A DNA stretch of 63,191 bases, counting the filler, from Globobulimina sp. (taxonomy: Eukaryota), in the NCBI GenBank assembly GCA_003354225.1. It is 45 parts of 45 records of this genome, joined end to end, with 100 filler letters (N's around TTAATTAATTAA, not from the genome) between each part and the next. Parts side by side here need not be neighbours in the genome. Positions count along the whole stretch, not along the records: positions 57,672 to 58,976 come from PIVH01019016.1; positions 59,077 to 60,381 come from PIVH01019017.1; 43 more parts are not named here. One strand, 5' to 3'. The translations under genes were made by a program, and so were the position numbers. Shown here piece after piece: positions 43,934-60,381 of this stretch; within the stretch, counting starts at the first letter, position 1, and each line of letters starts with the position of its first letter. The notes below the pieces were generated by a model. The model searched no databases, was not told the origin of the DNA, and saw only the letters and a list, made by a program, of their open reading frames with translations.

Positions 43934-44917
43934 TTATAAAAATCGTTTCATTCGATTATTCCTCTGTTGTTTTGTCTTTGTCTTTTGGCGTTTCATTGCT
44001 TTCTTTTCCTTTCCCTTCTTTGGTTTTGTTTTCCCCACATGTTCTGCCCATGTTATCCATTTAAATTTTGGTTTAATGGCAACCATTTCTGGATCCGGTT
44101 GAACTGTTACAGTAGGAACCTCTGGGACTTTTGGTTCTGGCTGAATTGTTGTGATAGGTGATGCATTGTTTGCACGCCCTTCCAGCTCCGATGTTAGAAT
44201 ATCCGTTCTAATTCTAAGATGTTCTGGAGTTGCTGTGCAAAGATCGACAAGTACATGGCCATAACGTTTCCTTGATTCACGTTCATATGCTGCGACCAAG
44301 ATTCTCTGTTTTCCAAGCTGTGAGCCCAATGTTGCCACCTGTTTTGCCATTCGAGGTGATTTTAGTAGAAAAAAGTAAGCTGTGTTGGCCGAAATGATCC
44401 TGCTGCTTGGCCAAGGCCCAAAAATAAAGTGCAACAAGAGCACGATACTGCAGTTTTTATGTCGAGCAATTGTGAAAACTTGGGCCACTTCTTTACTGCT
44501 GGCTGCAGAGATAGAGTTGTCGTCAATTATTATCAGTGTTTGTCCACCATTTGGATCGGCCATAGCTTCGAGATCAGCTTCTGTGATGATTGATCCCTTG
44601 ATAAAGTCACACTTTATCCCTTGAGCAGCCAGATTCTCCCTTAATTTCATATATGAGTCTTGCATACCTAGAGTGAAAATTGTTTTTAAATGTTAAATTC
44701 AAACAAAAAGTACTTACAGCTGTAGATAAAGTACACTCGAGTTGGTATGGGATTGTAGATTTGAGTTGCATTCTCAAGCGTTTTCATGAGCAAGTATGTT
44801 TTTCCCTGAAAGAGAAGAAACATTAAATGAAACTGAGGTACTTATACTGCACTTACGCTCTGACTTGAACCAGAATAAATGAAATTGTTTGGCAGTTGGA
44901 GTCTTTTATCAAATTCA
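43934..44917 (-). CDS. A32/FtsK-HerA packaging ATPase of Polinton/Maverick/adintovirus type, 5'-partial; introns 44806-44856 and 44668-44717
   Basis: Spliced product: FIYSGSSQS|GKT (Walker A), LIIIDD (Walker B), FTIARHKNCS, SRIISANTAY, YGHVLVDL, RIRT. Confidence 0.88.
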
Positions 44918-47864: not shown

Positions 47865-49062
47865 ATGCGCACAACAGAGAGTGTTTTGAAAATCCAAAAG
47901 GGCATCGTTGACAAATACAATGAGAACGATGTGTATAATTCATCGGCAATGAGTCTGATGGATGTTGATGGCATGTCCTCTGCGATCAGTCAAATGGATA
48001 CCAATGATACGCTGCGGCATCATCCTGATAATGACACCATGGTAATTCTTGAAAATGTTGAAATTGAAATGGGCTCAAGGAAAAATACAGCATTATATAT
48101 GAATGATATGAACCAACTCTTGGCAAACTATAAAGACACTTTCCATTCACTCACCAAGTTACGAAAACACTCACCAATTGATACGGACACTGAGCCTGAC
48201 ACTGACATACAACCAACACATAAATCACGTTTATGCCGTGGCACCGGCACATCCGTTCTATTATGGATATTACTCACTTATTCTGTATTATGTAGCACAT
48301 ATTTTTTATTCTGTGTTTTTTTTCGATCCAAAAACCTGCCCTTTTTACCAGATTCGGAGCAAAGTATGAATGCACTCGCACCGATATTTATTCCTACAGC
48401 GTCTCCAACCATTGCCATAGAAAAGTTAGTCACTTATTACATTGTTAATATATATACTTTGTGACAATTATAACAAACCATGCAGAGTTGAAATGGTATC
48501 AACGGAGCCAACATTAGAGCCAACATTGGAACCTACAAAGGCACCGCTAATAGTTGATAGATATTTTGTTGGTGATTACAAGGTCTCTGCACAGCTGCAA
48601 TCGCACGGAAACTGGTTATTATGTGATGGCACATTGTATAATGTCTCAGATTATGAAGAATTATTTGGAGTTATTGGCTATGTATTCACCGCAAAGCTTA
48701 ATGATGTATCGATATATGATGAGACTTTGTTTGCTGTTCCAGATTCGAGGGGTAAAGTGATTGGAATTTATGATGCTACAAAGCATTTATTTGGAGATGT
48801 TATTGGTGCGGATTGGATTAACTTGACACGGAGTAATCTACCATCACAATCTCATTATTTATTAAAGCACTTAAATGTGGATTTGGAGAGCATAGATTCA
48901 AACAATATGAGTAGGAATGTAAGCAATGTAACGTTAGATCATGGCACTGAATATATTGTATATGGAGGAATTGATGAGGAAACAAATGGAGTTAAATCCA
49001 GTCGGCCATTTTCCTCTTATCAACCAACCATATTTATGGGGAATGCCTTCGTTTATTCATGA
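47865..49062 (+). CDS. Single-pass membrane protein with C-terminal phage tail-collar domain; intron 48425-48485
   Basis: TM, then PT-rich stalk, then VGDYK.S..HGNWLLCDG..Y.ELF.VIG..F..F.VPD.RG, LT..NLP, QPT. Confidence 0.88.
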
Positions 49063-53453: not shown

Positions 53454-54447
53454 TGCGTCCAAATCCATGGATAAGGCGGTAAATTATATGGCGTATTTGC
53501 ATCGCTTTGATGATGATGAAATAGAGCAAGAAAGCGACGATTTTGCTGACAACAATGATTTTGATAAAATAATAAAAAGCTATAATCAGGGAAATAAAAA
53601 GAATTTTGGTACAGAGAGACACGAAAAGAGCCTGAAAGCAATAAACTCGATTTTAGAATTAGACGAAGTGGAACCGCTTATAATGTCATTCAAAGAAGGA
53701 AAGGCAAATAACAGTGATAAATCCAACTACGTTCTATTACGAAATGGAATTGATATTTTAAAGCAGGGATTGTATCTTTGCTACAATTCATTATTCATTT
53801 TAGGTATCAGAGAGATAACGATGAACATAAGAGATATTACAGTGATATTAAAATCAGGCAAACCAGCAAAATATATGGATAGCTACAGACCCGTTTCCTT
53901 GCAGTCGAGCTGTAGTAATCCGTACGATAAATGGATGGCGGCTAAATATTTAAAGTATGGGATTGAAATGAAAATAATTAAAGAGAGACACTTTGGATTT
54001 GTGAAAGGATTAGGTTGTGTTGACGCGATTGGATACATTGTAGAGCAGATTTGGAATAATAGAGTTATTAAGAAAGATACGCATATATTATTTATAGATT
54101 TTAAAGCAGCATTTGACACAATTCAACATAAAATAATATTAGAATGCATTAGTATTAATATAGGTATCAAAGGATTTGCGTTTGAATATTTATTTGTTGC
54201 ATTAGAATTTAGATGGGGCAGAGTCAAAATATATGGATATTATTGTACGTGGAGACAGGATATTTGTGGTGTACCACAAGGATGGCCCCCTTCGTCGATA
54301 TTATTCATATTCTTTACAATTGAATTTGATGCATTGAATGGACTTAAAATTGGTTTAGTTATCGTAGGATATGCCGACGATAATACTGTGTTTTCGGATG
54401 GATCAGTCAACGGAGAGGAGCTGAGACGAAACATTCAATATGATTGA
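53454..54447 (+). mobile_element. Non-LTR (LINE-like) reverse transcriptase, truncated just after YADD
   Basis: SYRPVSL, HFGF, FIDFKAAFD, GVPQG..S.ILF, YADD. Confidence 0.92.
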
Positions 54448-57571: not shown

Positions 57572-59186
57572 NNNNNNNNNNNNNNNNNNNNNNNNNNNNN
57601 NNNNNNNNNNNNNNNTTAATTAATTAANNNNNNNNNNNNNNNNNNNNNNNNNNNNNNNNNNNNNNNNNNNNAAAACATACCGATGTTCACATTGTTAAGC
57701 TGATAATGGCTGGCCGTCGTCGACATTTTATGCGATTTAAATCACGTAAATAACTGTTGACATTTATTCAAATGCAATGTTTGATAATGCGTGATAATAA
57801 AAAGTATTGTTTCTGTTTTTTTCACGGATGTTTTTGTCCAATTTTTTTCAGTTGTTTGTTTGTTTGCTTTTTTGTTGTTGTTGTGCTTTGTTTGTAACAT
57901 ATTGTATCATTGGTGTTGCATTCGTATATTTTTTTGCTGTGTTTGTTTGATGATTTCTTTCATAATATTGGGTGGTTTATTTTTCTTCGTATCCTCTTTG
58001 TTAATTCAATTTTAATTCAGTTTTAAATTCAGATCGAAATAAATTAATTGTCGAATCTGCGAAAACATCTGTCTGTATACGTAAAGTACTAAAAACACTC
58101 AGTCAGATTTTATTTGGATGTGTCAAAACAGATTTGCTCAAAAACAAATTAACACGTCTTGCGCCAGAAACGTGTTCTTATATTGCAGAGTGTTCTGAAT
58201 TTAAAAAATCTGAAACCAAACCACCTAAATTAAGAACACTCTGAAAACAAGTACTGACAAAGTATATTTCTAACACAATAGCGTAGATACTAAAAAATAG
58301 AATATACGAAAACACAGATTTGTGTACTTACCTTTTACCAATTAATTGTTGGTTAATGTCCAAAAAATAAATTTTATTTTTCTTTTCTCTCGCAGCTTTT
58401 TTGTGTTATATGAAAACGGTTTCAATACATCAAATCTCACACTTTTATAATATCAATATTCTGCACTTTATTTTGATAATACATTCACATTATTGAATAC
58501 ATTTGGAATTGTAACTACTTTGGAGACCATATTAAAGGTACAACAGAAAACGGCGTACAAATATTAATGTAGCTATTGTATACCGCCTACATTTGTATAT
58601 TATATTTAAATTCAATAATTGATACAAATTAAAATTGACAGTTTTGACACTAATTATATCAATCGATCATACAAAGCTTCGTTTAGTAGTTTATTCCGTC
58701 ACCATTTTCATGATACAATTTTCCGCAAAACAATGCAGTTAAACACATTTTATTTCATGAATGAACAATGACACTGCACATATTACTATAAACCTTGAGC
58801 CACTGCTTAATTCATATTCATATTAATTGGTTTGTTTTTCTTCATCATTAATTTTAATATTATATGCAAATCATAAATTGACTCATCTTAGTGACGCTAC
58901 ATACAGCATACATTACTATTTATATATCGATCGATCATATAAACCGTGAGTCACTGTTTCATATTGGTGTTATGTANNNNNNNNNNNNNNNNNNNNNNNN
59001 NNNNNNNNNNNNNNNNNNNNTTAATTAATTAANNNNNNNNNNNNNNNNNNNNNNNNNNNNNNNNNNNNNNNNNNNNACGAGCCCAATAAGGTAATTTGTT
59101 TAGAAACGTATACCTAAATGCTATTCTGCGCAGTTACTAAAAATAGCATACATTAAAAAGAAGACTCTCAGCGTCTTCACAGAAGG

Positions 59187-59194
59187 TATATAAA
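59187..59194 (+). promoter_or_regulatory. TATA box, followed by a probable 5'-UTR intron 59319-59572
   Basis: GGTATATAAAGG with Inr-like TTCATT about 30 nt downstream; GTAAGT donor and TTTCAG acceptor 28 nt before AAAATGG. Confidence 0.6.
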
Positions 59195-59600
59195 GGCCAG
59201 GCTCTGTTTCGGCCATTTTCATTATTTAGTTTGTGTTACGACGTTTATTGTGACCGATTATTTTTAATCGTTGAATTATAATAGACATTTTATACCAGTA
59301 ATTTTTGAAATCAAGTTGGTAAGTACATAATTACTTAATATTCTGTCAGTACAGTATATTATCCTTCTTTTAAGGTTGTTAGTGTTGCATATTTTCCAGT
59401 TTTAACAAGTTGTTAAATAAGTATAAAATGTAGAAATTAGAAAAATTTACTGTAAAAAAAATAAGAAAAGAATGGACTTTTGAAAAGATTCCCTCCATAG
59501 AAATCAGCCTTTTTAAGATTTGACCATTACGTCTCAACGATTCACTCATATAATCGTGAATTTTCATTTCAGAAACCATTTCTTATTTTTCTAATCAAAA

Positions 59601-60381
59601 ATGGTGAAACCTAAAAATCAAGGATTTTGTCAACCGTGCGCTAAAAATTTCAAGGATTTATCTAATCATAGACGTCAAGTGCATAACGACAAATTAACTA
59701 TTTGTGGCTACTGTAGCAAATCTGTGAAACGAACTTATTTGCGTAAACACACTGAAAATTTACACCCAGGATTTGAACCAAAACACCGACCTCCAAGCCA
59801 AATATGCCCTCACTGTTCTAGGGATTTTTGCTATTCATCAAATGAATATTTTACAAACCATGTCACCAACTGTTATCAAAATCCTGCTTCTGAATTTCTT
59901 CAAAGAGCCTTTCATTGCAACTTCTGTACGAAAACCTTCATTAACAGACATAATCTTATGCTTCATACAGAACGACGCCATGAAACTGAGTCCCCTATGC
60001 AGGGAGAGCCTGCTACAGAACTTGAGCTTGCTGACTTCAGAGAGGACCACTTTGATTATGGACAATTATTTGTGAAAACAAAAGAACATGGAAAACATAG
60101 TAATAGATTTAAGGCTTCCGAAAAGACTGTCAAATTTCGAATTACTGAGCTCGGATTGCGTCTCTGCCGAGCTGGAATGATACTTCCAGTTGTGAGCAAA
60201 ATCTTATATGGTGTTATCGACATAGGTCAATATGACCCCGAAAGCCTAATTTCTGTTACCATTGACAGTCCAGGTCTCGACCATGGTCACACAAGTGGCC
60301 TTCAGCAAGTGAAACATTTTCAAACTGACCTGTTTTTGATGAATTTCGAAAAAATTATCGATAGTAGTGATGTCATTCGTC
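59601..60381 (+). CDS. C2H2 zinc-finger array fused to a region resembling the Polinton pPolB N-terminus, 3'-partial
   Basis: Four CxxC..H..H/C fingers; PESLISVTIDSPGLD...FEKIIDSSDVIR resembles the D.V.I.I.SP.LD...IE.VLQSN..F motif recalled from Polinton polymerases. Confidence 0.65.

Follow-up and report, generated by a model that had tools for sequence, protein, structure and literature searches.

Four C2H2-type zinc fingers ahead of a terminal-protein-like domain in a probable Polinton/adintovirus-type polymerase gene fragment from Globobulimina sp.

Background

The closest described relatives of the gene fragment reported here are the protein-primed family B DNA polymerases (pPolB) of polintons and adintoviruses. 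The fragment lies on a single contig (positions 59077-60381) of a 63,191-base stretch of DNA from Globobulimina sp. (assembly GCA_003354225.1), which we refer to as the window. We consider it very probable that this contig covers the promoter region and codons 1-260 of a Polinton/adintovirus-type self-priming pPolB gene in which zinc fingers stand before the terminal-protein (TP) domain. In the available part of Starrett et al. 2021 (PMC8502044), the Alpha-class adintovirus/polinton PolB is defined operationally by an OTU domain together with pfam03175. The text available from PMC11161782 gives the architecture of polinton-type polymerases as TP(D1)-vOTU(D2)-Exo-Pol (Exo, exonuclease; Pol, polymerase). 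It describes the TP/D1 domain as a four-stranded sheet with two helices, resembling the little finger of Y-family polymerases, and places the DNA-linking residue in the loop between helix alpha2 and the last strand.

By domain content, the family to which the window protein belongs fits the Alpha-class adintovirus/polinton PolB. Its members share with that class PF03175 in the homologues, an OTU-like fold with Cys and His, and a TP/D1 signature with Ser, and the bidnavirus-like structural matches reported below fit the class as well. Unlike the polymerases described in the papers that we consulted, the window protein carries a four-finger C2H2 array ahead of the TP domain. The relatives also differ in a long Cys-rich module between OTU and Exo I and in multiple spliceosomal introns. 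The word 'zinc' does not occur in the available texts of PMC11161782 and PMC8363768, and in those of PMC8502044 ('Oncoid' genes) and PMC11071296 it is used only for separate genes. The open-access literature that we searched contained no paper describing a C2H2-pPolB fusion. What the window holds is an ordinary piece of such a gene. The gene itself is of a known kind, and its architecture is a variant that this literature does not describe.

The combination of fingers and polymerase is apparently visible in databases, both in a structural match named for a C2H2 domain and in protein clusters. Atlas clusters from arthropods and echinoderms have PF03175 together with zf-C2H2 in 18-27% of their members. 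The top structural match is a protein of Drosophila-associated adintovirus 2 (A0A7D4VFN9, 560 aa), whose database name points to a C2H2 domain in the same protein. According to the part of PMC8363768 that was available, this virus is represented by a 13.3-kb contig, and the near-identical adintovirus 1 has PolB, integrase, capsid, protease and FtsK-like genes.

Results

Longer homologues continue into a protein-primed polymerase

An exhaustive library search with the window protein gave 151 matches at E <= 1e-3, 14 of them at E <= 1e-10. Most of the 151 are generic multi-finger proteins that cover residues ~8-130 only, while at least 21 library representatives align over the fingers plus residues 130-260. 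Several paralogues have 47-80% identity. A search among longer proteins returned three matches in 364 candidates: P0002 (797 aa; 62% identity to the window protein across all 260 aa), P0003 (795 aa; 49% identity) and P0004 (701 aa; 77% identity over 141 aa, 54% of the query). In all three, PF03175 (DNA_pol_B_2) matched downstream of the shared N-terminal region, with 42.4 bits for P0002, 31.3 for P0003 and 38.5 for P0004 (cut-off 25.8 bits). These matches span profile positions ~9-164 of 468. A more distant member, P0011 (1079 aa; identity 32% in the library search and 28% in alignment A1), has a zf-C2H2 match as well as PF03175 with E 2.8e-24. All four members that are long enough (P0002, P0003, P0004 and P0011) therefore run on into PF03175. 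The first-pass annotation had linked the contig to Polinton pPolB, and this link is borne out: what follows the shared region in these four is PF03175 and not the remainder of an ordinary zinc-finger gene.

The four longer homologues (28-77% identity) continue with an OTU-like protease fold, a Cys-rich module and the PF03175 protein-primed PolB. The complete order of the polyprotein in the homologues is four fingers, TP/D1, a flexible linker, the OTU-like protease, the Cys-rich module, the 3'-5' exonuclease and the polymerase. Exo I-III motifs are visible in the homologue alignment A2. In L002, one of two relatives for which we have the gene sequence (the other, L001, encodes P0002), pieces resembling motifs A, B and C follow, in frames that alternate.

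A profile comparison (hhalign) of the family with P0154 gave E 2.9e-40 over 578 columns, reaching from the OTU Cys motif (around residue 320) to polymerase motif A. P0154 is a complete pPolB of 1202 aa (PF03175 E 6.5e-50) that matches tectivirus and phi29-type polymerases. Taken together, the PF03175 matches of the homologues and the alignment with P0154 indicate that the ORF in the window codes for the first 260 residues of a polyprotein of the pPolB type. P0154 itself is encoded at 3889-7494 of L004, an IMG/VR contig of 9754 nt. Its gene is intronless, and the protein has the same OTU-like motifs and Cys-rich module and is without fingers. The neighbouring genes encode a PDDEXK endonuclease and two unidentified open reading frames (ORFs) of ~650-675 aa, and the contig is binned with a giant-virus metagenome-assembled genome. 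The gene content of L004 gave no polinton context for P0154.

Other searches added little. A 'near'-length protein search with residues 130-260 had no match, and the same kind of search with P0002 added P0154 only. For the OTU-like region of P0002, Pfam gave only three matches, all at chance level (E 0.05 or worse) and none to an OTU family; for its Cys-rich region it gave no match. A PHROGs scan of P0001 and P0002 gave nothing useful.

We also noticed a motif, E-x-(N/H)-G-C-F-(V/W)-H-(G/A)-(C/H), in a segment of these polymerases that is inserted between Exo III and motif A. It is located at ~905-935 in P0011, at 4120-4145 in L001 and at 2350-2560 in L002, and in L001 and L002 an intron splits it past the G. 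Atlas neighbours often carry Endonuclease_7 (PF02945), and no such Pfam match was found in the family members scanned.

A terminal-protein-like domain with a candidate priming residue

The first-pass annotation had guessed that residues ~150-260 correspond to the terminal protein, and the fold supports it. In models, the region has the strand and helix order and the Y-family little-finger structural signature given for TP/D1 domains in the accessible text of PMC11161782. The segments ISVTIDSPGLD (residues 217-227) and FEKIIDSS (residues 249-256), on which the guess was based, are both present in the ORF that starts at 59601. Pfam found no match in residues 134-260, that is, past the fingers.

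A model of residues 140-460 of P0002 has a mean predicted local distance difference test score (pLDDT) of 81.2, with values >90 over most of D1. When it was used to search BFVD, seven matches with E <= 1e-3 were obtained, six of them named as polymerases, and all seven are adintovirus, MELD-virus, mavirus or bidna-like proteins. They comprise the 'C2H2-type domain-containing protein' of Drosophila-associated adintovirus 2, an Adintovirus sp. polymerase, a MELD-virus PolB, a mavirus polymerase and three bidnavirus-like polymerases. The adintovirus 2 protein ranks first (E 6.9e-6, probability 1.00, 382 columns). The same model shows an OTU-like fold in which Cys321 starts a helix and His423 starts a strand. 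Both residues are invariant in four close members. In the homologues, an OTU-like cysteine protease with Cys and His in place stands between TP and exonuclease.

Residue S255 is invariant in the alignments A2 (6 sequences) and A6 (4 sequences). The P0002 model places it directly past helix alpha2, at the start of the loop that leads into the last strand. We propose Ser255 as the best candidate for the DNA-linking residue. The domain would then resemble the PRD1-like tectivirus TPs and the adenovirus pTP, for which the available text of PMC11161782 proposes the same fold class and a linking residue in the loop before the last strand. Unlike those TPs, which are separate proteins without fingers, the domain described here is fused to the polymerase, and its priming residue is a prediction.

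Four zinc fingers

All four zinc fingers reported in the first-pass annotation are found in the window protein (Table 1). The four units fit the pattern C-x2-C-x9-15-H-x3-5-[HC] and can be classed as C2H2 zinc fingers. The window protein alone stays under the Pfam cut-off (PF00096, 17.1 bits against 25.2; best E 0.003), whereas a C2H2-type Pfam family is matched at E <= 1e-3 by 17 of the 21 family representatives. A profile of 21 family members matched solved C2H2 proteins, with Aart at E 1e-14; the listed best stretches all lie in positions 7-113. In the 21-sequence alignment, H122 and H127 of finger 4 are invariant, and C106 and C109 are kept in at least 90%. An AlphaFold2 model of the window protein (21 sequences; mean pLDDT 83.3) contains four beta-beta-alpha units. 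The four fingers exceed chance and are real.

Compared with the arrays of Zif268, CTCF and Aart, the fingers have the beta-beta-alpha units and the Cys/His ligand pattern in common (family profile E 1e-14 to 1e-7). They differ from these arrays in that only finger 4 has canonical spacing. The Cys-His spacers are short in fingers 1 and 2 (9 and 11 residues), finger 3 is of the C2HC form, and the long linkers do not follow the TGEKP type. Binding of DNA by the array is a prediction.

Table 1. Features of the contig at 59077-60381 (positions in the window)
Feature	Position	Strand	Basis
Upstream segment repeated in the reads of the source organism, TATA box included	59077-59219		Depth of contigs from run X1
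Candidate TATA box, TATATAAA	59187-59194	+	Identical octamer upstream of the homologous gene in L001, ~611-618
Putative non-coding first exon	59220-59318	+	Start inferred ~30 nt past the TATA box; end at the donor
Putative 5'-UTR (untranslated region) intron, 254 nt, GTAAGT...TTTCAG	59319-59572	+	Comparison with L001
5'-UTR part of putative exon 2	59573-59600	+	In-frame TAA at 59592-59594; AACCATTT after the acceptor in the window and in L001
First 260 codons of the probable pPolB polyprotein gene; ORF open to the last base of the contig	59601-60380	+	ORF and homology
Finger 1, C10-x2-C-x9-H-x4-H28	59628-59684	+	Model: strands 8-10 and 15-17, helix 20-27
Finger 2, C35-x2-C-x11-H-x4-H55	59703-59765	+	Model: strands 32-35 and 41-43, helix 44-54
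Finger 3, C2HC form, C69-x2-C-x14-H-x3-C91	59805-59873	+	C69, C72, H87 and C91 kept in at least 90% of 21 aligned sequences; model
Finger 4, canonical C2H2, C106-x2-C-x12-H-x4-H127	59916-59981	+	Best Pfam stretch, 104-127; model
Terminal-protein-like (D1) domain, residues ~153-260, last strand past the contig end	60057-60380	+	Fold
Ser255-Ser256; Ser255 (60363-60365) is the candidate DNA-linking (priming) residue	60363-60368	+	Conservation and model

Promoter, leader and a putative 5'-UTR intron

The start Met of the window ORF is aligned with the starts of P0002, P0003 and P0011. The ATG at 59601 has an A-rich context and a G at +4. Upstream of it, a TATA promoter and a leader intron had been claimed at first pass. 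The motifs themselves are present; splicing and promoter role draw comparative support from L001 only. GGTAAGT is found at 59318-59324, so that the intron would begin with the GT at 59319-59320, and TTTCAG is found at 59567-59572. Taken alone, the short DNA motifs are about as frequent as chance predicts: the window has 15 copies of TATATAAA, with 11.8 expected, and 3 copies of GGTAAGT, with 3.3 expected (126 kb, both strands of the window). Their weight comes only from the comparison with L001.

L001 encodes P0002 at 1194-3584 and includes 1.2 kb of upstream DNA. It has TATATAAA at ~611, GGTAAGT at ~834-840 and TTTCAG at 1155-1160. The acceptor is followed by GAACCATTT and, 24 nt on, by TAA-ATG. 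The order in the window is the same, with TATATAAA, GGTAAGT, a 254-nt gap, TTTCAG, AAACCATTT and ATG. Since GGTAAGT is rare here (3 in 126 kb), its matching place in both genes is unlikely to be due to chance. In each of the two genes a stop codon shortly precedes the ATG, which would put the intron wholly in the 5' UTR. In a blastn comparison, similarity between the window and L001 begins at the acceptor (59567 in the window, 1155 in L001), and the stretch from donor to acceptor gives no meaningful alignment. Judging from this one relative, the gene has a candidate TATA-type promoter and a leader that is probably interrupted by a 254-nt intron. A read contig over the acceptor (59455-59705, run X1) is unspliced and probably genomic.

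An abundant repeat next to the TATA box

We compared the contig with assembled reads of the source organism (run X1) and of a marine metagenome (run X2), both available as contigs only, of DNA or unrecorded kind. The summed word depth of X1 contigs is 49-150 at 59077-59214 and ~2-20 over the coding part; over its first ~140 bases the contig reaches 10-30x the depth that X1 contigs give over the coding part. The stretch 59077-59214 also has several short variants, and one X1 contig diverges past 59219. This divergence point is about where the transcription start would be expected. Exact X1 contigs cover 59455-59705 and 59757-60199 with a word depth of ~5. An abundant repeat thus adjoins or includes the TATA box, and it could be a dispersed repeat, a miniature inverted-repeat transposable element (MITE) or a terminal repeat. 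Near-identical pieces of the contig were found in X2. In both X1 and X2, loose ends resemble a paralogue of the P0004 type, which indicates more than one family member in those samples.

Introns and selection in the relatives

In both L001 and L002, a long first coding exon ends with ...ELLI(R/K) at a GTAAGA donor, and at least three more small GT-AG introns are found at the same positions. These shared introns indicate that the gene family is spliced. Between the two genes, the ratio of nonsynonymous to synonymous substitution rates (dN/dS) is 0.06 over 628 codons, with dS at ~1.8 and thus saturated; the comparison indicates strong purifying selection on both. An AT-rich intron of the polymerase gene in L002 contains a GC-rich, partly palindromic insert of ~150 nt (2369-2520). 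It is absent from the available part of L001 and looks like a small inserted repeat.

The other contigs of the window

The window is composed of 45 unrelated contigs of 1305-1308 bases each, ordered by length and separated by spacers of the form N44-TTAATTAATTAA-N44, and positions 59077-60381 are one entire contig. Its GC content of 0.347 is inside the range of the 44 other contigs. Rfam and repeat scans of this contig gave nothing notable, and none of the 44 others has DNA in common with it or carries another piece of pPolB. In a scan of 101 ORFs >= 90 aa, the genes on the remaining contigs proved to be ordinary eukaryotic ones whose exons are long and open, among them SNF2, Sir2, a Patched-type sterol-sensing domain, peptidase M20, an RNA polymerase Rpb2 domain, an AAA ATPase, a sulfotransferase and a SUEL lectin. 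There is also one reverse transcriptase, an open frame at 53455-54444 (+) that matches RVT_1 with E 4.2e-18, a retroelement fragment on a contig of its own. Amid these otherwise eukaryote-like contigs, the open frame at 48430-49059 (+) gave a match to the Phage Tail Collar domain (PF07484, E 4.5e-8) and could be either contamination or a eukaryotic collar-domain protein.

On the contig at 43612-44917, which the first-pass annotation had named as an ATPase contig, we observed an ORF of 243 aa (43934-44665, minus strand) that resembles A32/FtsK-type packaging ATPases and has a Lys-rich tail. Its Pfam match to Pox_A32 (E 0.0049) is under the cut-off; in the Atlas, 24 of 30 matches fall in the Pox_A32 family set, the best at 0.96. 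This ATPase could belong to a polinton-like element of the same assembly. No link to the polymerase contig was found.

Discussion

We regard the contig, with good confidence, as the start of a self-priming pPolB gene of the Polinton/adintovirus type. Several observations weigh against this view. With its ORF cut at codon 260, the window gene shows nothing of the OTU, exonuclease or polymerase parts, and past the contig end this copy could be decayed or truncated. A Foldseek search of PDB had no match at E <= 1e-3, and the BFVD search with the whole model of the window protein returned zinc-finger proteins only. A complete Polinton or adintovirus would be marked by an rve-type integrase, a virion module (double jelly-roll capsid protein, penton, A32/FtsK-like ATPase and maturation protease) and terminal inverted repeats with a 6-bp target-site duplication. 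Neither the 1305 bases of the window contig (524 of them upstream of the ATG) nor the relatives show a linked integrase, capsid, protease or terminal repeat; the L001 and L002 contigs (4.1 and 4.9 kb) hold the polymerase gene only. An IMG/VR scan with P0011 found one locus (L003), matched over the finger region only, and a second scan with the close alignment A6 found none. P0011 also had no match among phage records. Finally, intact vertebrate Mavericks are reported to be intronless in the part of PMC8097293 that was available, unlike the spliced family described here.

Some of these points would suit a host-resident gene, that is, a domesticated or solo pPolB of the same family that bears introns, has its own TATA promoter and is selected for a host function. 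The small GT-AG introns at shared positions, set against the intronless Mavericks of PMC8097293 (as far as its available text goes), and the low dN/dS of 0.06 (at dS ~1.8) between L001 and L002 are in line with such a gene. The low depth of the coding part in X1 (~2-20) relative to the upstream repeat also agrees with it, as do the lack of a capsid or integrase gene near any member and of a family member in either IMG/VR scan. However, low dN/dS occurs in diverged transposon and virus lineages too, and none of the contigs is long enough to reveal what genes lie next door. The several paralogues and the loose ends in X1 and X2 fit a multicopy element, and the same assembly contains a fragment of an A32-like packaging ATPase. 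The intact OTU dyad and the TP domain suit protein-primed replication of a linear element. On balance, we think a host-resident gene unlikely, although it deserves to be kept in mind.

The contig might also derive from an exogenous virus of the adintovirus or MELD type that was not integrated and was present in the sample outside the host genome. The best structural matches are adintovirus and MELD-virus polymerases, and near-identical pieces occur in the marine metagenome X2. Nuclear DNA viruses can be spliced, as in the E2B messages of adenovirus. Nevertheless, many small introns, as seen in the polymerase part of the relatives, are atypical of small DNA viruses, and the GC content of the contig is within the range of the other 44. 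The coding depth is low with an abundant repeat adjoining, and neither IMG/VR scan contained a family member. We judge this explanation quite improbable.

An ordinary host C2H2 transcription-factor gene with an unrelated C-terminal region would account for the weak, C2H2-only Pfam matches in the 260 residues and for the many generic multi-finger hits to residues ~8-130, but it deserves hardly any credence, being already contradicted by the at least 21 representatives that align beyond the fingers, by the continuation of 4/4 sufficiently long members into PF03175, by the hhalign match to P0154 and by the TP/D1 fold signature past the fingers.

If the contig is indeed the start of a Polinton/adintovirus-type pPolB gene, the polymerase would prime DNA synthesis with a hydroxyl from its own TP domain, for which Ser255 is the best candidate, and the OTU-like domain would then cut the TP off. 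Self-priming on TP and OTU-mediated TP release have been modelled in this way for polinton/adintovirus polymerases, as given in the accessible text of PMC11161782. Because the fingers are N-terminal to the TP domain, they would stay on the DNA-linked TP. Their simplest role might be sequence-specific DNA binding on the genome-linked TP, for example to the element's own ends or origin. Nuclear targeting and chromatin tethering are other possible roles.

In adenovirus, the host factors NFI and Oct-1 help with the recognition of the origin and the ends. If the fingers read the ends of the element, origin recognition would be built into the primer protein and not be supplied by host factors. Going further, one might suppose that a lineage of protein-primed polymerases has settled in an animal-type nuclear genome as spliced, TATA-promoted, constrained genes, with a genome-linked TP that has its own four-finger array for sequence-specific DNA binding. 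This larger picture is speculative, and we hold it to be rather doubtful. Should the genes prove to be domesticated, they would be a case of protein-primed DNA synthesis put to use by the host.

The current view of Polinton/adintovirus polymerases is that they are TP-OTU-PolB polyproteins. The fusion of C2H2 fingers to the TP suggests a built-in module for DNA recognition. At least 21 sequence clusters have a conserved C2H2 array fused to a TP domain, as apparently do an adintovirus and protein clusters from arthropods and echinoderms. The intron-rich, constrained genes of the relatives bear on whether such elements live as viruses, transposons or host genes. The DNA bound by the fingers would offer a testable handle on how such polymerases find the ends of their own linear genomes.

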